From positions 64,148 through 128,147 of the forward strand of contig JAIORZ010000002.1 in the NCBI GenBank assembly GCA_021107855.1: a stretch of 64,000 nucleotides of DNA, in the 5' to 3' direction. Made by a program: the position numbers and the translations under genes. The notes under the pieces are model-generated. The model saw only the letters and a list, made by a program, of their open reading frames with translations. It made no database searches and was not told the DNA's origin. Every line of letters begins with the position of its first letter. Position 1 is the first letter of the stretch. Below, in pieces: positions 1,900-58,767 of this stretch. The stretch comes from an archaeon (GTDB lineage: Archaea > Nanobdellota > Nanobdellia > Pacearchaeales > GW2011-AR1).

Positions 1900-2643
1900 C
1901 TACCATTCAAACGCACAACTCCTCACAGCAAATTTAAACTCGCTTCCACTTCTACGGTCAATCACACTATAAATCTTACTATAATCATAATCGGCTCGCT
2001 GAATTTCATACTCAGGATAAACAAACGAATAAGTATCATAATTAAAATGGCAATATTCAGTTTCCCCATTCACAATCTCCCTCACCACCCTAACCAAATC
2101 ATAAATCGGCGACATAATCTCAACCCCGAAATCTTCAAAACTCCTCGTCCCTGTCTCTCCCGAAAGCTCAACACTCTTCTTCAAATTAACCGCAACATGC
2201 CCAGGCAATAAATCAACAGAATAACTCATCGCGCCCTCATCAACATCAAAACCCTCATCCTCAAAACTCTCCCTCATCTTATCAAAACAATCCCCTAACT
2301 CATCTTCTATATCCTCCTCTATCTCTCTCTCAATCTGTAACTCCAACAACGGATGGATATTATAACAAGGATAATAAGACTCATTAATATAACACAAATA
2401 ATTCCACTCTTCCCCTTTGTACAAAATTGTCTTCGACGCCTCTATCTCGCCACCATTCAACAATATCTTATCAATCGACTCCTCCACAGCCTCACGAACA
2501 CAAACCTTAACAAATTCTTGCGGGCTCAAATCACTAGGACTCAAAAATCCACCTTCCCCTTCCGTCAGAAAGAAAAATCCCAAAACAGAAGCAACAAGTA
2601 GAATACCCACTATAATAAAAATCGTCACCTGCCCTCTTTTCAT
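1900..2643 (-). CDS. Pilin-like protein with candidate class III (prepilin-type) signal peptide; paralogue of 6353..7123
   Basis: Track ORF 1900..2865 is trimmed to the internal ATG 2643..2641 (MKRGQVTIFIIVGILLVASVLGFFFL) because the longer version overlaps the end of 2681..6349. KRG-Q followed by ~20 hydrophobic residues resembles archaeal prepilin signals. The rest aligns with 6353..7123 (ILYKGEEWNYLCYI / ILYEGEEWNYLCYQ; FKFAVRSCAF / FRFAVRSCAF). Confidence 0.7.
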   Translation of the reverse strand: MKRGQVTIFIIVGILLVASVLGFFFLTEGEGGFLSPSDLSPQEFVKVCVREAVEESIDKILLNGGEIEASKTILYKGEEWNYLCYINESYYPCYNIHPLLELQIEREIEEDIEDELGDCFDKMRESFEDEGFDVDEGAMSYSVDLLPGHVAVNLKKSVELSGETGTRSFEDFGVEIMSPIYDLVRVVREIVNGETEYCHFNYDTYSFVYPEYEIQRADYDYSKIYSVIDRRSGSEFKFAVRSCAFEW

Positions 2644-2680
2644 CTTAATACCAACATTTTCATATTTATAAATCCCATCA

Positions 2681-5600
2681 TTATGTCGCCACCAGCTCGA
2701 CCAAGCATCCACTCGGCACATTTCCATGAACATCTTTACATCGAATAAAATATTTCTTTCCCTTAACAACCCCAAATTCAAATTCCTTACCCTCCCCAAT
2801 CGAAACACCCTCATCCCAAACAAACTTACATCCGTCAAGCGAATATTTACACTCCGCTCCCTCATTCAAAATCAAATTCACAAAACTTTGGTCCTGCCAA
2901 ATACGACTAACCTGAGGAATCGAGCTATCATGAATAATTTCAAACTCAGTAACACCCCTAGCAAAATCCCCAGTCTCATCCTCGCACTCAACAAAAATCT
3001 CATTCCTTCCGGCTGGACGATTAAAAATCTGCGTATGCATTCTATTTCCTCCCGTCTCAAACAACTCAATCATATTCTCATAACCCGAAAACGAATACGA
3101 ACAAAAATGCTCTTCTCCTCCACCAGAAGTCGCAATCCTCAATTCAACCGTCGTCATATCAGTACTCGTCTGAAAATCAGTCCCCGGCTCAACACTATCA
3201 ATCACAATCACACTCTCCGGCCTCCGAACCTCATAAACAAAACTCCTCAGATTAAAATTACGCTCACTATCATTCAACCACGGCTGGTCCCCACATCTAA
3301 TATAATAAGTATAATTCTGCCTCTGCTCCCCCAACAACAAAGTACTATTACAAACATAACCTAAAACATCCGACGGAGCACCGAAAGAATCCCCACAATA
3401 CATCTCATTCTCCATCTCCGAATGTATAATATCTCTCTCACTCCACCAACAAGTCGCCAACTCATTTGTCACAATCTCCAACTCAACCTCTCCAACAACA
3501 ACCCCAACCAACTCATCATTCTTAGGCGTCGTCTTAACAACCCTTGGCGCACTAATATCCTCACCCTCATTCACACACATCTCAATCTCATAAAATCCAT
3601 CATTCAATATTCCATAAACATCCTGACACCTCACAAACAAACTCAAATCCCCAGTCCAATTATAACCCTGACTCTGCCCGTGACTCGGATCCGGCAAACT
3701 AAAAACCGTCGTATGGTTTATCAGATAAGCATTTCCCCCCAAATCCTGACCCAAACTCTCAAAATCCGTCGCCTCAAAATCAAACTTACAATGCGCCAAC
3801 TCACTCGTCACGACACCAAACATCAAAGGAGTATAAGCATCAATACAGCCTCCCCCACTAGGATTCAAACTAAACCCAGAACTACTGACATCATCATAAA
3901 TAATCCCATCCGAAATCACATCATACTGCGGACTAAGCACAGGCGCCTTCCCATCATCCTCCATAGCACCACACAACTCATTATCAGTCCCAACATTCAT
4001 CAATTCACATGCCGCCCCCAAACTCTCGCACCGGTATTCCGAGCACGGCTTCAGCGGGTCATCATTACACTTCTCACAATCAGCTCCCCCAACAGGCGCC
4101 TCCCATGCCTTACATTCAAACTCAATCTCAATATCATCACAATCACCTGCCCCAAAAAGACTACCAAGAATCATTAATATTACACCTATTATAATTATAG
4201 CCCATCCAACTGGTCCTATCGAAGCAAGACCAGCCCCCAATCCATACCATCCAACAACCGCCCCAATCAAAGCTCCCCCAACTGCCATCAACATGGTCCC
4301 ACCCGGACTCAATTCTAAATAATTCGCCAACATAGTCCCTACAAGCATTCCAATAGAAGCACCCATAGCAGCACCACCAAAAGCACTCAGCCCGGGACTA
4401 CTTCCCAAAAGACCTCCTTCAATAACAGTCATCCCCAAAACCGAACCAGACGTAAGAAAGCTTATCGCCATCGAAACCCCACTCAAACCACTCGCAAAAT
4501 CTTGCATCTTATCCCCAGTATCATCAGCACTCGCATTCAATGACGTCGATGGTCCCCAAATCCCAGCCGCTTCCAAAAACACCGAATAATTTTCAACTTC
4601 CGCAAACTGCCCCGGAACAGGTTTCGCCAAATCTTTCAACTTATCAACCCAACTAGAAGAAAGAAAGAGACTACTATCCGTTACGCCATCCTTAGTAACA
4701 TCATAATTTTCACTATACTCCCCCACAATATTAACCGACCCACCACAATCCCCAAGTCCCCTACAAAAATCATTCATCTCCTCCGCAAAAACACTAGTCA
4801 AACAATCCTCATTCGCAACATATTCACACCCTCTTCCCCATTTCTCACCCTCTCTCACAACCGTGCATGTTTGAGTCCCCATCCCACAAAGTTTCGACGC
4901 CGTAGTCATAGACCTCTCCTCACTTAAACTAAATCCCGCCGGATATTGTGGCAAACAAATATCAAACTCAAAGTAATCCGCAACATCAACCGTCTCAATC
5001 CTACAATTCAACGCACTCTCACAAGCCGTCGTTCCATCTTCCTCGCTATTCAAATTAATACACTCTCTCCAATTATTTGCCACACACGCAGAATCCCGAA
5101 AAGGAACACTCTTTCCATTAACATCAAACTCATCAGCCTGAATACAAATCTGATTTCTATAATCCGCACAAGGCTCAACCACCACAACTCCCTGCGAACA
5201 GACATATCTCCAGTGCCTCGACCCTACAACATCATTCCCTTCCCCAATTGCCCCATCATAAACACACCAAGACTCCCCATTCCTATAGCTCTCTCCCTTA
5301 AAAAGACACGAAGTATCCCTACAATAAAAATCCCCAATATCAACATTAAAATTATCCTCATCAGCCGAACTACAAATACTCCCCGCAAATCGATTACAAT
5401 TTCCACATTCTTCGGAATTCGCATTCCCACCGTCTATATCTCTACTCCCACAAAGGTCTTCCAACTCAGCGACCCTATCCCAATAATCCACATCATCAAC
5501 TTTCCACACATTATAAATATTCGCAGGGTTCCCACAAGAATCAACAAAATAAACCCCATCTTTCCCATCCACACATTGCGTCTGCCTCGTCATCTCACAA

Positions 5601-6352: not shown

Positions 6353-7123
6353 TTAAATCCCCGGCGCGAACGCACAACTCCTCACAGCAAACCGAAACTC
6401 GTCTCCACTCCTCCTATCAATCAACCGATAAATCTTACTGCCCGAATAATCAATTCTTCTAATATCATACCTAGGATACAAAAGCATATACCCATTATAC
6501 TCAAAATTACAAAACTGCGACTCACTGTTCACAACATCCCGAGCCACACTAACCAAATCATAAATCGGCGACACAACTTCAATCCCAAAATCCTTAGAAC
6601 TCTGAGTCCCCATATCCCCAGAAATATCAACCTGCCTCGACAAATCAACCTTAACATACCCAGGCAACAAATCAACAGAAAAACTCATCACACCAATCTC
6701 AACATCAAAACCCTCATCCCTAAAACTCTCCCTCATCCTATCAAAACAACTCTCTACCCCACCCGATATATCCTCCTTAATCTCGCTCTCAATTCTCAAT
6801 TCCAACATCGGATGAATATTATAACATCCCTGATAAAAATCCGCCTGATAACACAAATAATTCCACTCTTCCCCCTCATACAAAATGGCCTGCGATGGCA
6901 CCGCCTCACCACCATTCCTCATCATCTTATCAACCGAATCCTTAACCAAATCAGAAACACATCCCCTAACAATAGTCCGCGGGTCCAAATTATCAGCCCT
7001 ATCAACACCAGTCTCTCCCAAAAGCAAAAACGACAAAAGAATCATAGCTACAATCACGATACTAACCATGAAAAAAATCGCCACCTGTCCTTTTGTTCCA
7101 ACACCCATTTTTTTATTTACCAT
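6353..7123 (-). CDS. Pilin-like protein with candidate class III signal peptide (256 aa)
   Basis: The N-terminus MVNKKMGVGTKGQVAIFFMVSIVIVAMILLSFLLL has a KG-Q motif plus a hydrophobic helix. It is a paralogue of 1900..2643. Its ATG shares one nucleotide with the stop of 7123..7824 (TAATG), which suggests translational coupling. Confidence 0.75.
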   Translation of the reverse strand: MVNKKMGVGTKGQVAIFFMVSIVIVAMILLSFLLLGETGVDRADNLDPRTIVRGCVSDLVKDSVDKMMRNGGEAVPSQAILYEGEEWNYLCYQADFYQGCYNIHPMLELRIESEIKEDISGGVESCFDRMRESFRDEGFDVEIGVMSFSVDLLPGYVKVDLSRQVDISGDMGTQSSKDFGIEVVSPIYDLVSVARDVVNSESQFCNFEYNGYMLLYPRYDIRRIDYSGSKIYRLIDRRSGDEFRFAVRSCAFAPGI

Positions 7124-7824
7124 TAATCGATTTCCACGTATAAATAATATACTACATTACCTCCAATACTTTCATTCCCATAATCTGGCACAATCATCTG
7201 AAAATCATAAATACCACCATCATAACCACCAACATCATCTTCAATCTCCGTAGCAAAAACAATATCAGTATCATCAAACAAAACAATTTCTTCAAAACTA
7301 GAATTCTGAGTAACATTATCAACATATGCATTTGAAGCAAAACAATCCCCAACGCCAACAGAAAAACTAGCGATAACATAAGTTTCAATATTTGTCCCGG
7401 AAAAAGTGGACGAGATATTATCACCTCCAGAATGTTGTAAGGCACTATCCTCACTATTAATCTGACTAGTATTAGCACAGCCAATATTCCCCCACTCAAT
7501 AGACCCAGAGCCACGAGTAGCGTAAACTTCCCCGCCAGTAGTGGAAGATGACCAATCATAAACCGTAGAACCCGTAGAATCATCCAAAGTAAATTTCCCA
7601 TTAACCCAACCAACAAAACCCTTCCAACGAGAATTCTGTGAAATCGAAGAGATATTCATTTTAGCAACATAAGCACCAGAAATATTGACCATCCAAGGAT
7701 TAGCAGCCCCAGCCCCAGTCTCGTTATACGTTATATTCAAAGAGCTAGGTCCGGTCGGAAGTCCAGCAACAATACCCAAAAATCCAACCAAAAAAATCAA
7801 AACAAATCCTATTTTAACATCCAT
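7123..7824 (-). CDS. Secreted/anchored protein rich in N-x-S/T sequons (233 aa), hypothetical
   Basis: The N-terminal signal or anchor is MDVKIGFVLIFLVGFLGIVAG. The protein carries about 10 N-glycosylation sequons. It is packed tightly between the wHTH gene and the pilin-like gene. Confidence 0.7.
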   Translation of the reverse strand: MDVKIGFVLIFLVGFLGIVAGLPTGPSSLNITYNETGAGAANPWMVNISGAYVAKMNISSISQNSRWKGFVGWVNGKFTLDDSTGSTVYDWSSSTTGGEVYATRGSGSIEWGNIGCANTSQINSEDSALQHSGGDNISSTFSGTNIETYVIASFSVGVGDCFASNAYVDNVTQNSSFEEIVLFDDTDIVFATEIEDDVGGYDGGIYDFQMIVPDYGNESIGGNVVYYLYVEID

Positions 7825-7994
7825 AAGTTCACCCCCGCTTTTTTAATTCTATCAACTTCCCCATCCAAAGCCAATTCCATCAGATGTTTCTCCGCAGTAT
7901 TCCAAGAAACACTAAACTTCTCCGCCACCTCGCTACTTGTCACAATTCTCTCTTTCTTAATCAAAGCAATAATCTTTTTACTATGTATCTTCAT
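7809..7994 (-). CDS. Small winged-helix/HTH DNA-binding protein (61 aa)
   Basis: Track ORF 7809..8096 is trimmed to ATG 7994..7992. The product MKIHSKKIIALIKKERIVTSSEVAEKFSVSWNTAEKHLMELALDGEVDRIKK... has a wHTH-like pattern. It overlaps the next gene by 16 nt. Confidence 0.55.
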   Translation of the reverse strand: MKIHSKKIIALIKKERIVTSSEVAEKFSVSWNTAEKHLMELALDGEVDRIKKAGVNLWMLK

Positions 7995-47944: not shown

Positions 47945-48178
47945 TCATGAAGCATCCACAGAATGCCAATATCCATTAGATCTCTCCTGAACTTCGTCAT
48001 ACCTTTCATCGGTATAACCATAAATCTTTTCTTTATTTGTATCAGACCACCCAAAACGAATTACAGGACGATTATCCTCGCTCCTCCTACCATATTCTAT
48101 CGACAATTCATCCGGAGCTTTCCCCAAAGAAACCAATACATCGAAAAGCCGAGCCAACAAATCATCCGCCATAATCAA
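47945..48178 (-). CDS. Hypothetical protein (77 aa)
   Basis: The ORF overlaps the upstream gene by 4 nt. I recognised no motif. Confidence 0.45.
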   Translation of the reverse strand: MIMADDLLARLFDVLVSLGKAPDELSIEYGRRSEDNRPVIRFGWSDTNKEKIYGYTDERYDEVQERSNGYWHSVDAS

Positions 48179-48780
48179 CTCCTCATCCTCTTCCCAATCT
48201 CCAAAAAATCAACGTACTCAACCCGCACCTTATTCTTCTCTTTCACCTTAGAAGCAACCAAAATCTCCGAAAAAATCCCATTCTCCAACAACCACGAACA
48301 CTTCAACTTCTCCTCACGACTAAGCTTCCCATTCATCTTAACCTCAACCCCAATCACCTTATACAAATCTCTCCTCTTCTCAAAACACACAAAATCCGGA
48401 AACCCAGTCCCAATCGTCATCACACCCTTACCCGGACCAAACGGTCTAAACACCCGCTTGCACGGAACAACTCGCCCCTCATCTAAATCAACATTATTAG
48501 ACCACTTATCAACAACCCAGCCCTTCTCCTCCAAATCCTTCCGAGTTCTTAATTCAAACGCCCCGCCACTTGCCTTACTCTTAGACCCTCGCTCAATATT
48601 AACCTTTTTCTTCTGCTCCCCAATCTTCCCCTCACTATCCCACTCAGTCTCATACTTCTCACTAGAAGCCCTCTTAATCTTCCCCAATATTTTCTCCCTC
48701 TCAACACTCTTCAATTCCACATTAACCAAAAGCATCCAACAATTATAAACCCTCTCCCAATTCGCGCGGACGAACCACAC
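48175..48780 (-). CDS. PD-(D/E)xK nuclease, Hjc/restriction-endonuclease-like
   Basis: GGAFELRTRKDLEEKGWVV is followed by GFPDFVCF and then IGVEVKMNGKLSREEK, giving E...PD...E.K spacing as in archaeal Holliday junction resolvase-type nucleases. The N-terminal extension is uncertain. Confidence 0.5.
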   Translation of the reverse strand: MWFVRANWERVYNCWMLLVNVELKSVEREKILGKIKRASSEKYETEWDSEGKIGEQKKKVNIERGSKSKASGGAFELRTRKDLEEKGWVVDKWSNNVDLDEGRVVPCKRVFRPFGPGKGVMTIGTGFPDFVCFEKRRDLYKVIGVEVKMNGKLSREEKLKCSWLLENGIFSEILVASKVKEKNKVRVEYVDFLEIGKRMRS

Positions 48781-48821
48781 AACAAATACTATCCCCTACC
48801 GCCTAACCCCTCGTGAAGTGG

Positions 48822-48986
48822 CTATAGGTCACGAGCGTAAACAGTCCGCCTAAAATTCTTCTTCGCCCTCTCACTCGCCTTCTTCAAAATCCCCTCAACC
48901 CGCCTCTCCAACTCAACAGCCAAATCCTCACCCAAATTCAATCCATCAAGCATCTTCCGAATATTACTTCTTACAATAATTCCCAT
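48822..48986 (-). CDS. Small histone-fold-like protein (DUF1931-like, 54 aa)
   Basis: The ORF is not in the track because it is shorter than 60 aa. Hand translation gives MGIIVRSNIRKMLDGLNLGEDLAVELERRVEGILKKASERAKKNFRRTVYARDL*. The pattern ...V..L...A..RA..N.R.TV...DL is typical of DUF1931/histone-fold proteins. Confidence 0.5.
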   Translation of the reverse strand: MGIIVRSNIRKMLDGLNLGEDLAVELERRVEGILKKASERAKKNFRRTVYARDL

Positions 48987-49028
48987 ACTACATATAACAA
49001 ACTACACTTTAAATATATTACACAAAAT

Positions 49029-49613
49029 CTACTCAAGCCCAACCTCATCCCTTATCCTATCAACCGCACCAATAGAAATCTCAAAAAACTCACCCAACTC
49101 CAACCCAGTCTTCTCAATCTCCCTAATCAACTCCCGATTACAATTCGCCGCAAAAGCCGCACTCTTAAATTTCTTCTTCAAACCCTTAACTTTCATATCA
49201 CTAATCTTCCCACCCCTCATCAAAGCATAAGCATAAATCAACCCAGTCAAACTCTCCGCCGCGACCAAAGCATGTTCAATCTTCTTCGTTCTCTTTCCCT
49301 CTTTTAGAGTAGGAATTATATCAAGTCCACACCCATGCGACTGCACAATTCCGATAAACTCATCGTCAAATCCCTTCTCCCTCAAAATTCCCTTAGCCTC
49401 GACACAATGCCTTCCCAAATCATCCTTCGTCAAAGACCAATCAATATCATGCAACAACCCAACCATCCCCCAATATTCAACATCCTCACCGAATTTCTCA
49501 GCCAAAGCCCGCATAATCGCCTCACTCTCAAGATAATGATTCATGTCAGATTTCTCCTGCGGCATACTCTTCAAAAACTCTAAAGCTTCATCTCTGTTTA
49601 TTGGAAGCTCCAT
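49029..49613 (-). CDS. HD-superfamily phosphohydrolase
   Basis: The ORF is trimmed to ATG 49613..49611 (MELPINRDEALEFL), 1 nt after the lysS stop. The motif reads H...MRALAEKFGEDVEYWGMVGLLHDIDW. Confidence 0.65.
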   Translation of the reverse strand: MELPINRDEALEFLKSMPQEKSDMNHYLESEAIMRALAEKFGEDVEYWGMVGLLHDIDWSLTKDDLGRHCVEAKGILREKGFDDEFIGIVQSHGCGLDIIPTLKEGKRTKKIEHALVAAESLTGLIYAYALMRGGKISDMKVKGLKKKFKSAAFAANCNRELIREIEKTGLELGEFFEISIGAVDRIRDEVGLE

Positions 49614-49614
49614 T

Positions 49615-51159
49615 TTAATTTTTCTTAAATTCAATTTTTTCTTTAAGAGATATGTCTTCTTTGATTTCTACCTCATGACTAATTGCGGGCCGCATAAACG
49701 GAAAAAAAATCACATCCCGAATCGAATCCTTCCCAGTCAAAATCATAGCCAACCTATCTATCCCCATCCCAAATCCAGCAGTCGGCGGCATCCCATACAT
49801 AAGTGCATCAACAAAATCCTCATCCATCGGCATCGCCTCATCATCTCCCTCTCCTTTAAGTTTCTCCTGCTCCTCAAACCTCGTCTTCTGGTCAATCGGG
49901 TCGTTCAATTCATCATACGCCTTCACAATCTCAGCACCATCAATAATCAACTGCACCGAATTAACCTTAGAAGAATCATCTTTATTCCTCTTCGCCAAAG
50001 CAACCATTTCAACCGGATAATGAGTCAGAAATGTGGGCTGAATGATATTAGGTCGGACAATCTTCTTGTAAACCTCGTCGAGCAACCCTCCATAATGCTT
50101 ACATCCCGAAACATCAACACCAATTTTCTTCTCCTCCAACGCCGACTTAAAACTATCAAAATCTTTAGCTACATCAATATCAATCCCAATTTTATCAAGC
50201 AACAAATCCCTAAAACTAACCCTGGCAAAAGGCGTCTTAAACGAAATCTTATTCCCACGATACTCAATAGAAGGCCCAAGCTTCAATTCTTTTCTAAGCC
50301 CATTAAAAAATTTCTCAATAAACTTAACATGATACTCAAAATCTTTATACGCAACATAATATTCCATCATAGTAAACTCAGGGTTATGTGCATAATCAAT
50401 TCCCTCATTTCTAAAGTTCTTACAAATACTAAACACCCTTTCATACCCACCAACAATCAACCTCTTCAAATAAAGTTCAGGAGAAATCGACAAATAAGCA
50501 TCCATGTCCAAAGCATTAATATGCGTCACAAAAGGTTTAGCCGAAGCGCCCCCATAAACAGGCTGAATCAAAGGCGTCTCAACTTCCATAAACCCCTCGC
50601 TCTTCAAAAATTTCCTCAAATAAGAAACCAACTTCGACTTCACGACAAAAACATCCCTTACCTCTTCGTTCATAATCAAATCCAAATACCTCTTCCGATA
50701 CCGCTCCTCCTTATCCTGAATACCATGCCATTTCTCAGGCAAAGGCTTAATCGACTTCGACAACAAAATAACCTCACTAGCCAAAACAGATAATTCCCCC
50801 CTCTTCGTCCTCATGGGGCTACCCTTCACCCCAACAAAATCCCCAGCATCCAAATTCTTAAAACTCTTCATAACCTCATCCGAATTCTGAACCAAAATCT
50901 GAATCTTCCCCCCATCATCCTGAATCGTTCCAAAAGCAATTTTCCCCATCGCCCTTTTCAACATCAATCTGCCGGCAGTCACAATCTTGTCTTTAGAAGT
51001 TTTCTCATTCTTCAACTTAGAATACTTCTCCTGCAAATCCTTACACCAATTTTTCTTAACAAAATTCTGCGGATACGGCTCAACTCCCTCGCCTCTCAAC
51101 CTATCTATCTTCTTAATTCTCTCCTCAACAATCTGCTTCTCACGACCTTTAAGCTCCAT
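49615..51159 (-). CDS. lysS: Lysine--tRNA ligase, class II
   Basis: The 514-aa product has an OB-fold N-domain, FMEVETPLIQP, FRNEGIDYAHNPEFTMMEYY and a GMGIDRL motif 3. Confidence 0.9.
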   Translation of the reverse strand: MELKGREKQIVEERIKKIDRLRGEGVEPYPQNFVKKNWCKDLQEKYSKLKNEKTSKDKIVTAGRLMLKRAMGKIAFGTIQDDGGKIQILVQNSDEVMKSFKNLDAGDFVGVKGSPMRTKRGELSVLASEVILLSKSIKPLPEKWHGIQDKEERYRKRYLDLIMNEEVRDVFVVKSKLVSYLRKFLKSEGFMEVETPLIQPVYGGASAKPFVTHINALDMDAYLSISPELYLKRLIVGGYERVFSICKNFRNEGIDYAHNPEFTMMEYYVAYKDFEYHVKFIEKFFNGLRKELKLGPSIEYRGNKISFKTPFARVSFRDLLLDKIGIDIDVAKDFDSFKSALEEKKIGVDVSGCKHYGGLLDEVYKKIVRPNIIQPTFLTHYPVEMVALAKRNKDDSSKVNSVQLIIDGAEIVKAYDELNDPIDQKTRFEEQEKLKGEGDDEAMPMDEDFVDALMYGMPPTAGFGMGIDRLAMILTGKDSIRDVIFFPFMRPAISHEVEIKEDISLKEKIEFKKN

Positions 51160-51191
51160 AAAAAACTAAACTAAACCCAATTTATATATCT

Positions 51192-51470
51192 TTAGAATCT
51201 CAAAACCTTAAACTCATCAAAATCCCCACTCCACTTCCTCTCCTCAACAACAACATTCCTAATCTGCGCATGCTCCGGACCCTTTCTCAAAAACCCAGCC
51301 AGCCTCTTCAACCCCTCATCCTCACCCTCCGCAACAACCTCAACCTCACCACTCTCCAAATTCCGCACAAATCCCCGCAACTTCAAATCCTCAGCATGCC
51401 CCTTAACAAACTGCCTAAAAAAAATCCCCTGAACCGTTCCCTGCACAATAAATTTCGCCGCCTTTTTCAT
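51192..51470 (-). CDS. acyP: Acylphosphatase
   Basis: The 92-aa product carries VQGTVQGIFFRQFV...LRGFVRNLESGEVEVVAEG. Confidence 0.85.
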   Translation of the reverse strand: MKKAAKFIVQGTVQGIFFRQFVKGHAEDLKLRGFVRNLESGEVEVVAEGEDEGLKRLAGFLRKGPEHAQIRNVVVEERKWSGDFDEFKVLRF

Positions 51471-51540
51471 AAGATATAGACCAACATCCAGTTTTTATAA
51501 TTATGCCTAAAAAATAAAAAATAAGAAGGATTTCCACCTT

Positions 51541-51566
51541 CCTAAAAAATAAAAAAATAAATCAAC
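51541..51566 (-). terminator. Oligo-T terminator-like tract downstream of 51571..52506
   Basis: The - strand reads GATTTATTTTTTTATTTTTTAGG, followed by the hairpin GAAGG-N7-CCTTC (51525..51541). Confidence 0.4.
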
Positions 51567-51570
51567 TTAT

Positions 51571-52506
51571 TTAGCCTCTCTTCCAGAAAGCAACCCTTCC
51601 CCAAAAAGATTTCCTCTTCTCTTCAATCAGGTTCTTAATCTCAGCTTTCTGCTCATCAGTCAATTCCGCAATAGTGTCCACTCCAGCTCCATCAAGAACA
51701 TCATTCTTAAGCTCAGCTTTCTGCTCATCAGTCAATTCCGCAATAGTATTAACCCCAGCTTTCGCAAGAACCTCAGACCTTGCCGCACGAATTTCCTGAA
51801 CTCCTTTAACTACAGGACCAGGGACATTCTGCCGAACTCTCTTAAGAGTTGTTGCAAATTCTACATCCCATTCTCCGGACAAATCACCAGAATCAAGAAC
51901 AAGAAGACCTTTCCATGTAGTCAAACCCACATAAGAAGCCTTCTTAGTCAAAGTAAATTTCCCAACAACCTCACCTGCAAGCATTTCACCACTAGCCGAA
52001 GTTGCTCCCTCAACAGCATCCTCCGCATCACTATAGGGAGGATATTTATCATTCAAAGAAATAACCTGAAAGTCCACGCTATCCTCAGAAGTTAAGTCAT
52101 CATTATACCTGACAAGCTTATAATTACCAGCACCAGCAACATGAAGTCTTCCAAGAGTTCTCCCAGTCCTAGTATTTTCAACACTAGCCATATCAGCATC
52201 AAGAGCCGCGAATTTTTGAACAGCCCAAAAGCCAGTTATATGATAACCGCTCTCGCCATTCTCAATCCATCCATGACCCCTCCAAGTATTGGCAAAACCA
52301 ACCCTCTTTAAATTAGGAGACATGCTTTCTCCAGTCTCAATCAAAACACTATTGATATCATCGGTACCAATCGATCCAACAACCACCTCAGAAGCATCAA
52401 CTACTTCATTAGTAGCCAAACTCGCACTCTCAGGCAAAACAGCCGAAGTCGCGAAGACACCAGAAACAAGAAGCAACATCAAAAAAATTCCATTTCCAAT
52501 ATTCAT
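51571..52506 (-). CDS. Secreted protein with C-terminal tandem TIAELTDEQKAE repeats (311 aa)
   Basis: The signal peptide is MNIGNGIFLMLLLVSGVFA. A 35-nt perfect direct repeat (51641..51675 = 51713..51747) encodes GV[ND]TIAELTDEQKAE[LI]KN twice. Confidence 0.75.
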   Translation of the reverse strand: MNIGNGIFLMLLLVSGVFATSAVLPESASLATNEVVDASEVVVGSIGTDDINSVLIETGESMSPNLKRVGFANTWRGHGWIENGESGYHITGFWAVQKFAALDADMASVENTRTGRTLGRLHVAGAGNYKLVRYNDDLTSEDSVDFQVISLNDKYPPYSDAEDAVEGATSASGEMLAGEVVGKFTLTKKASYVGLTTWKGLLVLDSGDLSGEWDVEFATTLKRVRQNVPGPVVKGVQEIRAARSEVLAKAGVNTIAELTDEQKAELKNDVLDGAGVDTIAELTDEQKAEIKNLIEEKRKSFWGRVAFWKRG

Positions 52507-52519
52507 TTTAATATACCTC

Positions 52520-52575
52520 CTTTCAAATTTTTTAGCATAACAAAATTTGCGTAAGGATTTCTCAATCCGCCTCTC
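52520..52575 (-). promoter_or_regulatory. Conserved ~57-nt 5' leader motif, copy B (hairpin GGATT-N4-AATCC at 52555..52568)
   Basis: The - strand sequence is GAGAGGCGGATTGAGAAATCCTTACGCAAATTTTGTTATGCTAAAAAATTTGAAAG. GGAGGT follows, 9 nt before ATG 52506. Confidence 0.55.
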
Positions 52576-52723
52576 AAAAAGTTAAATTTGATAAAATCTA
52601 CATAACAAATCCCCGATTCTCCCTTCACTTGTTCAAGCGTCTTATTCATACTTTCCACAAGAATAAAAACTATATAACCCCCACCTGGAACCAAAACGGA
52701 ACAAAAATGGAACCAAAACGAAA

Positions 52724-53404
52724 CTAAACCAACTCAAGAAACTTATTTCTTCCCTCGCCAGTTCTTTTCAAAAGCCCCTTCCGTTCCAACTCCTGAATAT
52801 GCCGCGAAAACGACGCCTTAGGAATATCACAAATTTTCTTCAACTGCGAACTCTTCACTCGTCCCGTTTGCTTCAATTTATCAAGAATCAAATTTTCCCG
52901 CTTTCCAAGAACATTCCTAATTAATTTCTCCTTTCCTCCAACTCTCTTCCCTAACTTGCCCCAACCATAAAACAAAAACCCAAAAAGAACAAAAACAAAA
53001 ACACCCACAGATACCCACAAAACCAAGTTACTAGACTGCTCCCCAATAATATAAGTCAATTCTATCTCCCCAAAACCATAAACACGAATTTTATTACCCT
53101 TAACAAAAATCTCACCTTCCTCAATAGACTTTATCGTCGCTCCCTTCGGAAGAACCAAAGTAATCTCAGCACCATCAAGAAAATAAGAAAAACTCCAAAC
53201 TTCCCCCGCCTTACTCGTTAGCACCTGCGTCTTCCCAATCACATCCCCATCCTCAACCACCACTCCCCCCGGAAAAGAAACATTCTCATCAGTCCCTCCC
53301 AAAAACAAAGCCGAACCACCACCATCCAAATAAATATCAACAAAAGTATATGCCGAAACATTCCCCAGCAAAACCAACCCCAGCAATAAAAAACACAACC
53401 TCAT
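52724..53404 (-). CDS. Membrane-anchored wHTH regulator with extracytoplasmic domain (226 aa)
   Basis: The protein has a signal or anchor, a ~110-aa outside domain, a TM helix (LVLWVSVGVFVFVLFGFLFYGW) and a C-terminal wHTH (ILDKLKQTGRVKSSQLKKICDIPKASFSRHIQELERKGLLKR). Confidence 0.65.
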   Translation of the reverse strand: MRLCFLLLGLVLLGNVSAYTFVDIYLDGGGSALFLGGTDENVSFPGGVVVEDGDVIGKTQVLTSKAGEVWSFSYFLDGAEITLVLPKGATIKSIEEGEIFVKGNKIRVYGFGEIELTYIIGEQSSNLVLWVSVGVFVFVLFGFLFYGWGKLGKRVGGKEKLIRNVLGKRENLILDKLKQTGRVKSSQLKKICDIPKASFSRHIQELERKGLLKRTGEGRNKFLELV

Positions 53405-53428
53405 AAATTACCAACCTAAATATTACTT

Positions 53429-54004
53429 TTATAACTTCCTATCTAACTCATTATGAATCAAAACAGCAACCTGACTCGCGAACAAAACCCGCGGTCCCAC
53501 ACTCAGCCCATCAACCCTCTTCAAAAATTTCTTCATCCCAGAAGGAAACCCCTCATGGTCCCCAATAACAAAAACAACATTATCCAAACTTCTCCCCCGC
53601 ACATCCTCACCCTTTCCATCAAGCAACAAAACATCCCTACCCTCCTTATCTAATTCCTTAAGCAAAACCTCAAAACCCTTCCTCTCAATCCAACACCCCG
53701 GCACAATCTCCCGCAACCCCTCCTCATCCTTCGCCTTATACAACATCCTCTTAATCAACCCCGCAACATTCTTCTTCGAAATCGGCATATCCTCATTACT
53801 CTCCAAAACCAAATGCCGTGGATTATTCGGCCCCCCATCGAAAATCAAATGCAACCTCACATCATCCCGCATCGCATTCGAAACAAAAAAAACAGACACG
53901 ATAAAATTACAAACAATATCCAGCCGCCCCGCCTTCTTCAAATCATCCTTAATCAAATTCCCAGCAGTCACAGCATTTTTCGAATAATAAACAAATTCTC
54001 TCAT
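53429..54004 (-). CDS. trmY: tRNA (pseudouridine54-N1)-methyltransferase TrmY (SPOUT, DUF358)
   Basis: The 191-aa product carries GRLDIVCNFIVSVFFVSNAMRDDVRLHLIFDG and a C-terminal knot region (VFVIGDHEGF...GPRVLFASQVAVLIHNELD). Confidence 0.75.
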   Translation of the reverse strand: MREFVYYSKNAVTAGNLIKDDLKKAGRLDIVCNFIVSVFFVSNAMRDDVRLHLIFDGGPNNPRHLVLESNEDMPISKKNVAGLIKRMLYKAKDEEGLREIVPGCWIERKGFEVLLKELDKEGRDVLLLDGKGEDVRGRSLDNVVFVIGDHEGFPSGMKKFLKRVDGLSVGPRVLFASQVAVLIHNELDRKL

Positions 54005-54035
54005 CTCTAAACGAATCTATCACACTTTATAAATA

Positions 54036-54323
54036 TCAGGGAGTCCAACGGTATTCAAAAGCAGTATATTCCTTATCTTCATATCTTTTAGTAATTAAAA
54101 GCTTTTTAGCCCCATCACGGGTTGCAAAATACAAAACAGGAACTACCTCAGTTGACTCATTAGTAGACTTCCAAGTCTCGTTCCTCGTCACTCTATCAAT
54201 CTTAACATCATCTAAAAGATAACCCATATCCACCAAAGATCCAACCAAATAATGCAAACTAGCTTCAAGCACTTTTTTCTCAAGACACGCCTCCCCGTCC
54301 CGAACATCAATTTCAGTTTTCAT
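54036..54323 (-). CDS. Hypothetical protein (95 aa) in RSH-like island
   Basis: The ORF is co-directional with and downstream of 54390..54755. I recognised no motif. Confidence 0.5.
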   Translation of the reverse strand: MKTEIDVRDGEACLEKKVLEASLHYLVGSLVDMGYLLDDVKIDRVTRNETWKSTNESTEVVPVLYFATRDGAKKLLITKRYEDKEYTAFEYRWTP

Positions 54324-54389
54324 AATTAAAAAAACAATAAAGATTATTTATATTTTATTGTCATCCAAACTCTATATTCTCTCCAAAAA

Positions 54390-54755
54390 TCAAATATAAC
54401 TTTTCTCTAATCTATGATTATTTTTCCACACCACATCCCAAATCCTCTCCCAAGACATCCCAATCAAACCCTCAATATATCCTCCAGAACCCTTCCCATT
54501 CTCTTTTTCATATTTTTCAATCAATCCCCTTCTCCTTACTTCTCTTACCGTTGAATTAGGAAAAGAAAACTTTCCTAAATCCCCAAAATTAAATTTCACA
54601 TCCCTTATATCCCAAACAATTTCCTGAAGAATTTTCCCAGTACTAATTTTCCCTCCAGTATACCAAATCCCATCATAATTAATTCCCCCTAAAGTAAAAA
54701 TATCTAATTTATGAGCAATACATATCCCGTTGACATATTCTATTCTCTCGTTCAT
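54390..54755 (-). CDS. Hypothetical protein (121 aa) in RSH-like island
   Basis: The ORF is trimmed to ATG 54755..54753 (MNERIEYVNG), because the longer track ORF overlaps the upstream gene. Confidence 0.5.
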   Translation of the reverse strand: MNERIEYVNGICIAHKLDIFTLGGINYDGIWYTGGKISTGKILQEIVWDIRDVKFNFGDLGKFSFPNSTVREVRRRGLIEKYEKENGKGSGGYIEGLIGMSWERIWDVVWKNNHRLEKSYI

Positions 54756-54801
54756 AAATATCAAACTAAAAAAGTCTTTATAATAATTATTGTGATAAAT
54801 T

Positions 54802-55761
54802 CTAATCCGAAAAATCAGGACAAGCCTTTTTCCCGTGCCCCTCATAAAAACGAGAACACTTTTTACCAACCAAATTAAAACACTCATCCTTAATACTTCT
54901 AAATTGAACTTCAACTGGATAAGTCCTAAAAGCCTTGTCTTTCAATGTATAATGAACCCCGCCAGGTCGACATTCTTCATTCCTATCTCGATGATCCCTA
55001 ATATCAACAACATCAAAATGACGAAAATCAATTGACAGACCTTTATCTACCAGATACTCCATATTTTCTTCCGATTTTTTCTGAGACATCTCAACAATTT
55101 TAACCCCGAACAAATCATAAGGAAGCATATCAGTAACTTTCTTCCCGTATTTTTCCCTATAATGCCTAAAATCACACAAATATGAATAATTATTTTCAGC
55201 CGCATCCATAACAAAATCCCAAAAATTGATTTCCCCCCCATCAGTCAATTTAGCAAAATTAGTTTTAAGTTTAGAGATTATGGATTCAGTCTCTTTATGT
55301 CTATAGCTAACCATATGATTACTTCCTTTGCTAAAAGAATGTTTAGACCATTTCGCATATTCATAAGGCATTCTCTCTTCACTAAACAATGCCGCAGCGG
55401 TAATCTCATCTAGCGCAAATTGACCCCCATAAGAAGCTCTCAATTTTCGCCTAATCACCTCGGGACTCTTTTTGGAAAAATATCCACTTAGTCCTTCATG
55501 TCCATTAGAGAGCCTAATCCCCCCACGAGTCATAGCCACAATAAGATTCTCAATCTTTGGAAGAATATCAGTATTGTAAAATTTTCGAATCTTACCCTCA
55601 TTTTTCTTTAATATTTTCAGATTATCGCTACTAATAATTCTCTTGTCTATAGGACCATGCAATATAAGATTTGTCAAAGACGGATTCGTATTACTTCCAG
55701 ACTTTGAAAGAGCGCTATTTAATCTCCTAACAATATTTTTCGGATTTCTCATCCCAATCAC
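54802..55761 (-). CDS. RelA/SpoT-homologue (RSH/SAS)-like nucleotidyltransferase (319 aa)
   Basis: The motif order matches the (p)ppGpp-synthetase fold: HKETESIISKLK (cf. R.KS.ESI..K), PYDLFGVKIV (cf. DIAGIRI), DIRDH...RPGGVHYTL (cf. DYI..PK.NGYRSLH) and PVEVQFRS (cf. VEIQIRT). The ~150-aa N-terminal region is unassigned. Confidence 0.55.
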   Translation of the reverse strand: MIGMRNPKNIVRRLNSALSKSGSNTNPSLTNLILHGPIDKRIISSDNLKILKKNEGKIRKFYNTDILPKIENLIVAMTRGGIRLSNGHEGLSGYFSKKSPEVIRRKLRASYGGQFALDEITAAALFSEERMPYEYAKWSKHSFSKGSNHMVSYRHKETESIISKLKTNFAKLTDGGEINFWDFVMDAAENNYSYLCDFRHYREKYGKKVTDMLPYDLFGVKIVEMSQKKSEENMEYLVDKGLSIDFRHFDVVDIRDHRDRNEECRPGGVHYTLKDKAFRTYPVEVQFRSIKDECFNLVGKKCSRFYEGHGKKACPDFSD

Positions 55762-55821
55762 AATAAATATCCATTTATAAAATTACCTATTATAACTACT
55801 ACATAATGACATTAAAATTGA

Positions 55822-57105
55822 CTAAAACCGAACCTTTCCCCAATGCCCCATCGCATCCATCAATTCCCGATGCGTCCTCCCATAATGCTCCAAACTCTCA
55901 CCAGCAACAACAGCGTCGACTGCCTGCCTCATAGCTCTCGCTCCCTTAGCCGTCCCTTCAGGATGCCCATGCACACCACCCCCAGCCTGAATAATAATAT
56001 CCTCCCCAAAATTCCTCATCAAATACGGAACATGCCCAGGATAAATTCCCCCCGAACAAACCGCAAAAGTAGGCTTCAACCCCTGCCAGTTCTGCTCCAA
56101 CCTATGCGATGTTTTCCCAACCTTCATCGCCTCAATCTCCTGCGCAATCTCCCGAACCTCACGCTTCCCTCCCCGCATCTTCCCAATCCCAGTCCCAATA
56201 TGCAAACTATCACTCCCAGCCATCCGAGCAAAATCAGCGACACACATCATCGACAAGCCATGTTTCGGATTCTCGGTGAACGCCCCATGCATCGCCCTAT
56301 GCGAATGAATCCCAAGCTTACAATTCTGCCTCAAACTCTCAAGACTCGAAAACCCAGCAGTAATCACATCATGCATCACAAACTTCCCACCCAACTCTTT
56401 CACCAAATCAGCCCTCTCCAACATCAACATCGCCTCCGCCGTCACATTAACCAAATAACCCTTCCTCTCCCCACTTTCCTCCGCAGCCTTATCGCACATC
56501 TCCAAAGTTTTCGCCGCCCTTTTCTCAAACGGATTAAATTTCTGCGACGCCAAATTCTCATCGTCCTTCACCAAATCACAACCACCAACCCAAGCATCAT
56601 AAGCAACCTTCGCATGATCTTTCGTCCTCAACCCCAACTTCGGCTTAACAATCGTCCCAACAAGTGGCCTATCTTTCACCCTCAAAATCTTCCGATAACC
56701 CTCAATCCCATAACGAGGTCCAGGAAAACTCTTCAACAATTTCGCCGGAATCTTAACGTCCTCCAGCCTCAAACCCTTAACACATTTCATCCCAAAAACA
56801 TTACCAGCGACGGAACTCAAAATATTCGAAACACTACCTTCCTCAAACAACTCCTGCGGATAAGCAATCTTCACCCAATCACCAGAAATCGCAAAAGCCT
56901 TCGCTCCAAGTTTATTCACATATTTCTTATTCGAAGAAACAGGCGTCCAAGTCCCAGTCGAACTTTCAAGCGCAACATTGTTAATCGCCTCCATCAAACC
57001 CATCCCGTCCGGCGCCACACGAAACAAACAAATCAAATCATTCCTCGTCGGCCGATAGCTCTGATTAACAAAAGGATAATTCACCATCTTAACCATCAAA
57101 AGCAC
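55822..57105 (-). CDS. rbcL: RuBisCO large subunit, form III-like
   Basis: Motifs GTIVKPKLGL, GGCDLVKDDENL (carbamylated-Lys region), SLHIGTG and IIQAGGGVHGHPEG are present. The product is ~420 aa and the start codon is uncertain among M1, M4 and M7. Confidence 0.9.
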   Translation of the reverse strand: MLLMVKMVNYPFVNQSYRPTRNDLICLFRVAPDGMGLMEAINNVALESSTGTWTPVSSNKKYVNKLGAKAFAISGDWVKIAYPQELFEEGSVSNILSSVAGNVFGMKCVKGLRLEDVKIPAKLLKSFPGPRYGIEGYRKILRVKDRPLVGTIVKPKLGLRTKDHAKVAYDAWVGGCDLVKDDENLASQKFNPFEKRAAKTLEMCDKAAEESGERKGYLVNVTAEAMLMLERADLVKELGGKFVMHDVITAGFSSLESLRQNCKLGIHSHRAMHGAFTENPKHGLSMMCVADFARMAGSDSLHIGTGIGKMRGGKREVREIAQEIEAMKVGKTSHRLEQNWQGLKPTFAVCSGGIYPGHVPYLMRNFGEDIIIQAGGGVHGHPEGTAKGARAMRQAVDAVVAGESLEHYGRTHRELMDAMGHWGKVRF

Positions 57106-57185: not shown

Positions 57186-57392
57186 ATGCAAAATAAAAAG
57201 AGAGTGACAGTCCTCGTAACAATAGCTTTAATTCTAGCCATAACTGCAATCGCTCTAAATTCTATAGACTCCGAAATTTCAACCACAAGAACTCAAACCC
57301 AAGACCACGCAGGTGGCGGACAAATCGGAATAGACATTCAGCCCCCCCAAGTAGAAGATAAATTATTAGAAGAAGAAATCCCACAACAATGA
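57186..57392 (+). CDS. Small membrane-anchored protein (68 aa), hypothetical
   Basis: The N-terminal TM helix reads VTVLVTIALILAITAIAL. The ORF overlaps the next gene by 4 nt. Confidence 0.45.
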   Translation: MQNKKRVTVLVTIALILAITAIALNSIDSEISTTRTQTQDHAGGGQIGIDIQPPQVEDKLLEEEIPQQ

Positions 57393-57976
57393 AATACGAC
57401 ACACTAGAAATCACAAGCTACGCTTCAATAGCGGTAATCGCAATATCATTATTCTTTATCGGAACAGAATTAACAGGAATGGCAACAACAAATGATACAG
57501 GTGATGTCAACGTAACGATTACAGATTCGGCTGGAATAAATTTCACAACAGATTTATTAGATTTCGGGTCAGGAGCAGTAACACCAGGACAGACAGCAGT
57601 ACTAGAGAGTAATGGAACAGGGACAAACCTATCCTGGAGCGGAGCTAAAGTAACAGGCGAACTAGTTCTAGAAAATATAGGAAACAATAATGTAAGTATA
57701 ATGCTACAGACAGATAAATCCGCACAAGAGTTTATCGGAGGATCATCAGGCGCAACATTTGAGGCAATGGTAAGTAATGATAGTGAGCCGCTCTCATGTG
57801 TAGGAACAAATACATTCACAACTTTCGCCCCTATCAACACCACTCCCCAATTAGCATGTGGCTCATTCAACTTTTCGGATGCAGCGGACGAACTAATAAT
57901 CGACTTCAGAATAAACATCCCAGATGATGCAACTGGGGCAAAGACAATCGAGATTAAAGCGATAGGCACATATTAA
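57389..57976 (+). CDS. Secreted beta-rich protein (195 aa), hypothetical
   Basis: The N-terminal anchor reads YASIAVIAISLFFIGTEL. The mature part is Thr/Asn-rich with sequons. Confidence 0.6.
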   Translation: MKYDTLEITSYASIAVIAISLFFIGTELTGMATTNDTGDVNVTITDSAGINFTTDLLDFGSGAVTPGQTAVLESNGTGTNLSWSGAKVTGELVLENIGNNNVSIMLQTDKSAQEFIGGSSGATFEAMVSNDSEPLSCVGTNTFTTFAPINTTPQLACGSFNFSDAADELIIDFRINIPDDATGAKTIEIKAIGTY

Positions 57977-58065: not shown

Positions 58066-58767
58066 ATGGAAAAGAAATTATCCAATTTAATAGAAAAACT
58101 ATCAACTGGCAAACTAACTTTCAAAACCGTCATCAAAGAAGTCAGTTCATGGGATGATCCACATAAAGAAGTCGAAGCATATTTTGCTCTCATAGATTCC
58201 ACCTGTAAAGATAGAGACATCGAAACTTTATCAAAGATGAACAAAGAAGCATACAACAAAGTATTAATTCTCGAGGACATGGACACACTAACTAGACTAC
58301 CAAAAAGAAAAACTTTTGAAAAAATCTTCAAAAGAGAATATTCTAGATTTGAAAGAAGTGGCGACCCATTTAGTATCGTAATAATAGATTTAGACTATTT
58401 CAAAAAAGTCAACGACACCTACGGGCATCTGGCAGGAGACGCCGTCCTAGAAAAATTTGCAAAAAACATAAGAACTTGGATACGAAAAATTGATTTCGCC
58501 TGTCGTTATGGAGGCGAAGAATTTGCCCTAATTTATTCAAGTATTTCCGGAGAAAACGCCGTAGGGGCAATCGATAATTTGATAAAAAGAGTTTCTAAAT
58601 CTAAAATTAATATTGGGAAAGGAAAAAAAATAAAAATTACTTTCAGCGCTGGGGTCTATGAAATAAAAGAAAAAGATTCATTAAACGACGCTTTTGAAAG
58701 AGCCGATAAAGCATTATACAAAGCAAAAGAAAACGGAAGAAAACAATCCGCCTTATACAAGGACTAA
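58066..58767 (+). CDS. GGDEF-domain diguanylate cyclase (stand-alone, 233 aa)
   Basis: Motifs DTLTRLPKRKTF, IIDLDYFKKVNDTYGHLAGDAVL, RYGGEEF (intact active site) and RADKALYKAKENGRKQ are present. RKID lies 5 residues upstream of GGEEF, which is an RxxD I-site. Confidence 0.85.
   Translation: MEKKLSNLIEKLSTGKLTFKTVIKEVSSWDDPHKEVEAYFALIDSTCKDRDIETLSKMNKEAYNKVLILEDMDTLTRLPKRKTFEKIFKREYSRFERSGDPFSIVIIDLDYFKKVNDTYGHLAGDAVLEKFAKNIRTWIRKIDFACRYGGEEFALIYSSISGENAVGAIDNLIKRVSKSKINIGKGKKIKITFSAGVYEIKEKDSLNDAFERADKALYKAKENGRKQSALYKD

Follow-up and report, generated by a model that had tools for sequence, protein, structure and literature searches.

The small alarmone synthetases (SAS) RelQ (SAS1) and RelP (SAS2) belong to the RelA/SpoT homologues (RSH) and are represented in the PDB by entries 5DED, 6EWZ, 6EX0, 6FGJ and 6FGK. 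The toxSAS proteins FaRel, FaRel2, PhRel, PhRel2 and CapRel (Jimmy et al. 2020, PMC7229694; Kurata et al. 2021, preprint) also have a stand-alone synthetase (SYNTH) fold. In Archaea, a survey of RSH proteins (Atkinson et al. 2011, PMC3153485) recorded sporadic 'divRel' SAS, for example in Methanosarcina acetivorans, and saw them as bacterial transfers. Li et al. (2021, PMC8407392) counted, at the level of annotation, RelA/SpoT entries in 41.7% of Woesearchaeota and 21.3% of Pacearchaeota, and attributed these to bacterial transfer as well. Here we examine an RSH synthetase-like gene in a 64,000-nucleotide stretch of DNA, the window, from an archaeon of the Pacearchaeales (GenBank assembly GCA_021107855.1, contig JAIORZ010000002.1, positions 64,148 to 128,147 of the forward strand). 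The gene lies on the minus strand at 54802..55761 and encodes 319 amino acids (aa) if read from a GTG at 55761. It is one of three co-directional minus-strand open reading frames (ORFs) that the ORF list and Pfam place between trmY and a form III-type rbcL.

We rate the family to which this gene belongs as a divergent variant of the known RSH synthetases and not as a new kind of system. In our preferred reading, to which we assign a probability of roughly 0.55, it would be a resident, DPANN-restricted and very divergent SAS-like pyrophosphokinase encoded by a stand-alone gene. This reading is carried by the fold of the protein, by conserved ATP, Mg, His and catalytic residues, by purifying selection, by a stable chromosomal position and by the absence of a conserved partner gene.

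Fold and active site of the archaeal protein

The relationship to RSH enzymes is visible only by fold search and by profile–profile comparison. Searches of PDB sequences with the single protein and with 5- and 40-sequence profiles returned no RSH match, and against Pfam RelA_SpoT (PF04607) the window protein scores 16.9 bits (E 0.008), below the gathering cut-off of 27. An exhaustive profile search yielded a family of 59 clusters at 50% identity. Forty of these sequences were aligned, and the conservation figures and the PADLOC and NCBIfam scans given below refer to these 40; a further homology search with the 40-sequence profile added two usable proteins. Seven of the 40 match RelA_SpoT at E<=0.01 (best 1.1e-7), and one member, P0005, carries a precomputed PF04607 match, but most are annotated 'hypothetical protein' and escape Pfam. 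Every member that could be placed comes from a DPANN (Nanoarchaeia-type) genome, the taxonomic labels of the relatives reading only 'archaeon' or 'Candidatus Nanoarchaeia archaeon'. The family is basic, with a median isoelectric point (pI) of 9.0. Apart from RelA_SpoT, no Pfam signal was found in the window protein, and no HD hydrolase, TGS or ACT/RRM domain flanks its SYNTH region. NCBIfam gave nothing relevant for the three window proteins or for the 40 family members.

Comparison by hhalign of the 40-sequence family with a nine-sequence RSH SYNTH alignment gave E 2e-5 and a probability of 77%. The reference alignment combines E. coli RelA with RelP, RelQ, Rel and SpoT sequences from Listeria, Staphylococcus and others, which were taken from records mislabelled 'phage'. 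Removal of a family-specific insertion (residues 171–206) improved the match to E 1.2e-7 and 94%, with all motif blocks in register, and each of three ways of cutting out this insertion gave E ~1e-7 and 93–94%. Profile comparison with RelA alone gave E 0.0024. An AlphaFold2 (AF2) model computed on the 40-sequence alignment reached a predicted local distance difference test score (pLDDT) of 92.1 and a predicted template modelling score (pTM) of 0.90, and all of its top 28 Foldseek matches in the PDB (28/28) are RSH synthetases (RelQ, RelP, Rel, SpoT and RelA). An earlier AF2 model, built on a 5-sequence alignment, was poor (pLDDT 66.6) and is superseded; its fold search had the same outcome. 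Foldseek matches in the viral structure library BFVD include phage RelA/SpoT proteins. Because hhalign, the register of the motifs, the AF2 model and the top 28 fold matches all point to RSH, we consider the predicted RSH synthetase fold secure, the modest E-values notwithstanding. An earlier note on this DNA had recognised a RelA/SpoT-like synthetase from the sequence alone and had called for a profile and Foldseek comparison with RSH; its assignment is borne out. The three ORFs and the four motifs that it quoted (SYRHKETESIISKLK, PYDLFGVKIV, DIRDHRDRNEECRPGGVHYTL and PVEVQFRS) lie where it had placed them, and the N-terminal region of ~150 aa that it described ahead of the synthetase motifs is present.

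RelQ and RelP are the best structural and profile matches (Foldseek probability 0.99–1.0; target-normalised template modelling score up to 0.48). They have in common with the archaeal protein the strand order, the RxKxxxSIxxK motif, the DxxGx(R/K) strand, the His, the Glu of ExQxR and the C-terminal H/xxY helix. Unlike these bacterial enzymes, to which it is only ~14–17% identical, the protein is archaeal and DPANN-restricted, carries an extra basic N-terminal domain of 135 aa and an insertion of 35 aa, and is without the 'GYxS' tripeptide. The corresponding regions of the gene are the following.

55357..55761, minus strand: family-specific N-terminal helical domain (residues 1–135, pI 10.1) with conserved P27, L51, Y62, R104 and T121
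55270..55302, minus strand: Syn1 ATP-binding motif R154-x-K156-x3-S160-I-x2-K164, at a strand end and helix start
55144..55251, minus strand: family-specific helical insertion of ~35 aa (residues 171–206), between Syn1 and the Mg-binding Asp strand
55099..55116, minus strand: D216-L-F-G219-V-K221, counterpart of the RSH DxxGxR strand, aligned with RelA D275 and RelP DIAGIR
54943..54969, minus strand: R265-P-G-G-V-H270-Y-T-L, counterpart of 'GYxSxH', with the His kept and three residues deleted
54898..54912, minus strand: E284-V-Q-F-R288, counterpart of EIQIRT with the catalytic Glu, aligned with RelA E335

The spacing of Syn1 (RxKxxxSxxxK) is identical to that in RelA, RelP and RelQ, and with the insertion removed hhalign places it on RvKsleSIgaK. 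K156, D216, G268 and E284 are invariant in the 40 sequences, R154 and K164 are 97% conserved, and H270 and Y306 are conserved to at least 93%. In RSH enzymes the Asp of the DxxGxR strand coordinates Mg, and D216 aligns with this position (RelA D275, FaRel2 D90). H270 aligns with the His of GYRSLH, and the C-terminal xH/xxY helix aligns with RSH enzymes too. Conservation thus extends to the catalytic Glu, whose loss would have spoken against the earlier note, and equally to the catalytic Asp and to the residues that bind ATP. The acceptor side is different. Where RSH enzymes have G-Y-x-S-x-H, the family has RPGG-x-H, and the acceptor-stacking Tyr falls into the resulting gap of three residues in every alignment; no conserved aromatic residue was found in the family at or beside the deleted position. 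Elsewhere in the protein, Y62, F249 and the insertion are conserved candidates for a substitute. Kurata et al. (2021, preprint) describe this Tyr as strongly conserved across SAS enzymes and indispensable for the activity of FaRel2; in the DPANN family the equivalent of FaRel2 Y128 is missing. Because this residue is absent, GDP or GTP as the canonical acceptor is doubtful. From the alignments, the ATP/Mg side of the active site looks intact and the acceptor side not canonical. No homologues of the N-terminal domain (residues 1–135) were detected.

Comparison with the other described systems leads to a similar mixture of likeness and difference. The family shares its basic character with the tRNA-targeting toxSAS, and in the window genome alone small ORFs adjoin the RSH gene. 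In contrast to toxSAS, it shows no conserved bi- or tricistronic architecture, no overlapping partner, no association with mobile elements or phages and no PADLOC match. CapRel carries a C-terminal antitoxin/sensor domain after its SYNTH domain, whereas the window protein ends ~30 aa after the last SYNTH helix and has its extra domain, all-helical in the AF2 model, at the N-terminus. No CapRel chain was found among the top 50 Foldseek matches. The divRel proteins and the reported DPANN RelA/SpoT genes are, like this one, archaeal and synthetase-only, with no obvious hydrolase partner. In contrast to those reports, the family is mostly unannotated, escapes Pfam and appears to be inherited vertically and in synteny, although overlap with the reported genes is possible. 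One family member, P0057 (L020 5001..6749), is a 582-aa fusion in which a His_Phos_1 domain (E 1.5e-24) precedes a complete family domain; it represents one cluster on a single 36-kb contig. This combination on one chain resembles the HD-SYNTH arrangement of long Rel/SpoT enzymes, but the phosphatase domain is unrelated to HD, TGS and ACT are absent, and the window protein is without a phosphatase domain.

Taken as a whole, the locus supplies a candidate that is intact, has a confident structural model and comes from a family apparently native to DPANN. The encoded protein is small, and its differences from the bacterial enzymes are defined: the stacking Tyr is gone and the N-terminal domain is new. 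For reduced, host-dependent archaea this leaves as alternatives an alarmone-type nucleotide, the modification of RNA ends or a new use of the fold.

Genomic position and exchange of the gene

The gene is accompanied by the following features.

55822..57105, minus strand: rbcL, archaeal RuBisCO large subunit (RuBisCO_large, E 4.7e-88), the upstream anchor, conserved in this clade
54390..54755, minus strand: ORF121, small protein of 121 aa, pI 8.7
54036..54323, minus strand: ORF95, small acidic protein of 95 aa, pI 5.2
53429..54004, minus strand: trmY (Methyltrn_RNA_2, E 3.4e-43), the conserved anchor downstream of the RSH-like gene

The probable start of the RSH-like gene is the ATG at 55752, which gives 316 aa, agrees with the NCBI call and encodes the first Met in all homologues. 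Versions of ORF121 begun at TTG or GTG (151–174 aa) would overlap the upstream gene, and its homologue starts with the same MNERIEY. No paralogue of the three proteins was found within the window. The DNA comes from a marine-sediment metagenome in which three independent sequencing runs assemble the same junctions with only a few single-nucleotide polymorphisms, at a depth across all junctions of up to ~13x (~3–5x in the third run). Since the three runs give identical junctions, the arrangement is not chimeric, and we can exclude an assembly chimera as the source of the divergence from relative L006 described below. None of the RNA-seq runs in which the RSH-like gene was sought contains it.

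Relatives were all found through the RSH gene itself, and the genomic-context scans returned four genome loci and one metagenome locus. Six independent relatives carry the RSH-like gene at the rbcL/trmY locus. Wherever the flank is on the contig, the gene lies directly downstream of rbcL (L001/2, L003-5, L006/7, L008 and L015) and upstream of trmY (L001/2, L003-5, L006/7 and L013). The same strand and a gap to rbcL of ~60–100 nucleotides (nt) recur in every member of this clade, and the position is kept down to 79% rbcL identity, so that the gene is not newly 'wedged' between trmY and rbcL, as had been supposed. A second lineage has retained the gene order methyltransferase–membrane protein–RSH–rad50 although the proteins are only 38–58% identical, and rad50 there begins ~45 nt past the RSH stop. 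Further family members adjoin V-ATPase A/cbf5, trm5/ribosomal protein S2 or radA/nop10; distant members have no small partner ORF and stand beside rad50 or other housekeeping genes instead. In at least two lineages the RSH-like gene has stayed in place on the chromosome, and the pattern of conservation argues for vertical, syntenic inheritance within DPANN.

What is striking is how the gene has evolved. Proteins encoded around it are 80–96% identical to those of L006 (rbcL 94%, GGDEF 96%, acylphosphatase 95%, trmY 91%, ORF95 95%), while the RSH protein is 46% identical. At the nucleotide level the divergence is confined to one block.

54807..55800, no strand assigned: hyperdivergent block, 45–67% nucleotide identity to L006

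The flanks are 84–97% identical in rbcL and 88–95% identical from 54306 downward, and the borders of the divergence are sharp (~55,800–55,900 and ~54,310). Synonymous divergence (dS) in the RSH gene is 1.19, as opposed to 0.27–0.34 in five flanking genes, and the ratio of nonsynonymous to synonymous divergence (omega) of 0.14–0.39 points to purifying selection. Faster protein evolution alone can be rejected as the cause of the 46% identity: because dS is raised as well, to about four times that of the flanks, the gene must have a different history and not merely an accelerated one. The window allele is congruent with that of the more distant L001 (62%; rbcL 86%), the L006 allele is equidistant from all others, and L013 holds a third. 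These comparisons indicate that among close relatives the RSH ORF was replaced by recombination with a deeply divergent allele, and that it behaves as an exchangeable cassette between conserved flanks.

Immediately downstream, the interval between the RSH gene and trmY differs from relative to relative.

Window: ORF121 and ORF95
L006/L007: ORF95 alone, 94.7% identical
L013/L014: an ORF121 homologue (~80% identical), followed by an opposite-strand pair (a secreted-looking protein of 258 aa and a helix-turn-helix (HTH) protein of 193 aa)
L001/L002: an unrelated Cys-rich ORF of 90 aa
L003: only a duplicated 5' fragment of trmY

ORF95 was found only in the closest relative (L006/L007), and the ORF121 homologue only in L013/L014, beside a different RSH allele; relative to L006, ORF121 is an insertion. 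Each of the two small ORFs thus sits by different RSH alleles, and both are absent in distant lineages. An omega of 0.08 reveals strong purifying selection on ORF95, which is clearly a real gene by this measure, and with an omega of 0.40 ORF121 is probably one as well. Neither has a Pfam, NCBIfam, PDB or viral-contig relative or a match to a PHROG family of known function, the only PHROGs signal being a single weak match to an unannotated family. PADLOC gave no relevant match for the three window proteins, none of the 40 family members (0/40) matches any of its models, and no viral contig in IMG/VR holds a relative of any of the three.

Each gene of the segment appears to have its own signals. 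A box resembling TTTATAAA lies 20–30 nt before the ATG of the RSH gene, ORF121, ORF95 and trmY, with T-runs between the genes; judged by the known archaeal TATA consensus, we infer that these are archaeal promoters and terminators. For ORF121 the box is at ~54775–54785 and for ORF95 at ~54343–54355.

55773..55782, minus strand: TATA-like box TTTTATAAAT of the RSH gene, 21–30 nt upstream of the ATG at 55752

Its location implies a promoter of the RSH gene's own with a short or absent leader. ORF121 and ORF95 are best explained as independent passengers, each with its own promoter, of the variable spot that separates trmY from the RSH gene.

The earlier note had described the segment as a compositional islet with more T and no C>>G skew on the plus strand. 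It is indeed poorer in GC (34.4%) than trmY (43.6%) and rbcL (48.3%), its GC content at third codon positions (GC3) is 0.29–0.32 as compared with 0.51–0.53 in the flanking genes, and T is more frequent, the AT skew dropping to ~0. For the window, however, this composition is ordinary, lying within one standard deviation of the mean (38.1 +/- 4.7%) and at the 21st percentile, and the claim about skew was wrong: the plus-strand GC skew is -0.44 in the segment and -0.71 in ORF121, and the coding-strand bias of G over C runs on through it. In every relative the GC3 of the RSH gene is below that of its neighbours. The islet-like look results from this persistently low GC3 and from the replacement of the RSH allele; what is real about it, as far as these comparisons go, is a sharply bounded allele replacement with a variable insertion spot just downstream.

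Candidate functions

If the preferred reading is right, the enzyme would bind ATP-Mg through R154, K156, S160, K164 and D216 and, with E284, would move the beta,gamma-pyrophosphate from ATP onto a ribose 3'-OH in the acceptor. More tentatively, this acceptor would most likely be a purine nucleotide, and the product an alarmone-like messenger. Since the stacking Tyr is deleted, the acceptor would have to be recognised differently than in known RSH enzymes, and the basic N-terminal domain and the insertion at residues 171–206 would probably supply or regulate the acceptor site. By analogy, the fusion to His_Phos_1 in P0057 fits a cycle in which a nucleotide is made and broken, and would favour small-molecule turnover.

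Several points weigh against this reading. Taken alone, the window protein stays below the Pfam gathering score, Foldseek gave modest E-values (6e-3), the family has no acceptor-stacking Tyr, and (p)ppGpp has been reported absent from the archaea examined so far. With only 59 clusters the family is possibly patchy and not core, and the question of a hydrolase partner covered this locus only. The constancy of the gene between rbcL and trmY is subject to ascertainment bias, because the relatives were found through the RSH gene. Finally, allele replacement beside a variable spot would be expected of a conflict or defence gene as well.

This last point leads to a possible but rather unlikely alternative, in which the gene would be a self-contained toxSAS-type conflict or immunity gene. 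By functional analogy to fused CapRel-type systems, a latent RSH toxin that might, for example, pyrophosphorylate tRNA 3' ends or deplete ATP would be restrained by its own N-terminal domain, which would also act as the sensor. Such self-regulation would explain both the swapping of alleles and the adjacent variable spot, given that three close relatives hold at least three deeply divergent RSH alleles, with sharp recombination borders and a fourfold higher dS than in the flanks, next to a site that gains and loses small ORFs and a two-gene cassette. A narrow, fast-evolving and basic family (median pI 9.0; N-terminal domain 10.1) would suit an RNA binder of this kind. Yet within each of two lineages the gene has kept its place among housekeeping genes across deep divergence, selection is purifying throughout, and neither PADLOC (0/40) nor IMG/VR links the family to defence or viruses. 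The extra domain is also N-terminal and helical, the top 50 fold matches include no CapRel structure, and the Tyr required by the tRNA-targeting FaRel2 is missing.

An unlikely alternative is a housekeeping RNA-directed enzyme that would modify the 3' end of tRNA or rRNA, or another ribose, in normal RNA maturation. The loss of the nucleotide-stacking Tyr and the gain of a basic N-terminal domain are consistent with this idea, as are the recurring RNA-modification neighbours (trmY, a UPF0020-type methyltransferase, cbf5/truB, trm5/tyw2 and nop10). However, DPANN genomes are dense in such genes, so that these encounters could be due to chance, and the adjacent gene differs from lineage to lineage. 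Moreover, Pfam recognised no RNA-binding domain, and the His_Phos_1 fusion better suits small-molecule turnover. We regard as similarly doubtful a combination of these ideas, in which a DPANN-own RSH-fold pyrophosphokinase would act on a non-canonical acceptor, which would be the 3' end of an RNA or else a nucleotide or ribose-phosphate that bacterial enzymes do not use. Its deeply divergent alleles would be exchanged among co-occurring strains owing to its role as a self-regulated effector of conflict or immunity. If true, this would be the first toxSAS-like system of Archaea.

It is very improbable that the protein assists the nucleotide-salvage route of the adjacent form III RuBisCO, for example by acting on a ribose-phosphate intermediate. 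The close same-strand spacing to rbcL (~60–100 nt) throughout the clade would agree with such a helper, but this adjacency is absent in all other family lineages, and its confinement to one clade makes the link unlikely; in addition, the RSH gene has its own promoter-like box and its allele is exchanged independently of rbcL.

Hardly credible is the proposal of the earlier note that an RSH-like toxin, ORF121 and ORF95 form a three-gene module of a new toxin–antitoxin or defence subtype. In its favour, the genes lie close together in one direction, ORF95 is real and ORF121 plausibly so, and toxSAS modules of bacteria include small neighbouring partners (PMC7229694). Against it, ORF95 and ORF121 accompany different RSH alleles and are each missing from most relatives, every gene has its own TATA-like box with T-runs in between, and none matches an antitoxin-like, defence or phage family. 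The co-occurrence of the small ORFs with the RSH gene, which that note had proposed to examine, fails, as they vary independently of it. By no comparative criterion are they antitoxins, and a tempting over-reading is corrected.

Other features of the locus and its relatives

A direct repeat of 36 nt (72% identity) joins the promoter-like regions upstream of ORF121 (54754..54789) and of the RSH gene (55763..55798), and a shorter copy of the element TGATATTTAT(A/G) precedes trmY (54026..54038). The repeat could be a shared promoter or initiator element, or could provide homology for cassette exchange. Around the ORF121 insertion we found no clear target-site duplication or terminal repeats, only AT-rich promoter-like similarities, and a mobile-element origin of ORF121 is unsupported by this repeat search. 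In L003, the duplicated 5' fragment of trmY (7002..7082; an ORF of 29 aa) lies before the intact trmY at 7338 and is 89% identical to window 54004–53924, the footprint of a rearrangement at this junction. The opposite-strand pair of L013 (898..2252, between ORF121 and trmY) recurs in L001 upstream of rbcL (1945..3317) with 73% nucleotide identity. It encodes a secreted-looking protein of ~258 aa and an ArsR/MarR-type HTH protein of ~195 aa, and appears to be a cassette that relocates around the locus.

Upstream of rbcL, the window holds a single pair of ORFs of 68 and 195 aa (57186..57976), which in L006 is tandemly duplicated (2765..3555 and 3787..4577). No Pfam match was obtained for the 195-aa proteins, which share 80% identity.

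In L017, on a contig of 1.09 Mb, an ORF of 332 aa (6972..7970) lies 31 nt upstream of the RSH-like gene P0052. It weakly matches the family profile (RRRKaSleSK and DFAGV stretches) and could be a tandem paralogue that has degenerated. In two unrelated lineages (L003 8554..9338; L017 4171..5080), a minimal nucleotidyltransferase paired with a HepT/HEPN-type protein, a toxin–antitoxin arrangement, occurs 1.5–3 kb from the RSH-like gene. Such pairs are common in archaea, and their proximity is probably coincidental.

Over the whole window, G strongly exceeds C on the coding strand. The plus-strand GC skew is -0.38 overall, -0.65 to -0.72 over minus-strand genes (for example 48000..54000) and near zero or positive over plus-strand genes.

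At 58066..58767 (plus strand), 2.3 kb from the RSH-like gene, the window encodes a protein of 233 aa that resembles a bacterial-type c-di-GMP synthase. Its GGDEF diguanylate-cyclase domain is complete (Pfam E 2.9e-43), its RYGGEEF signature is intact, and it is 96% identical in L006. Many archaeal GGDEF matches come from DPANN and Asgard (review, PMC8646023). The presence of GGDEF and RSH-like genes together suggests that bacterial-style nucleotide signalling in DPANN may exceed what has been assumed.

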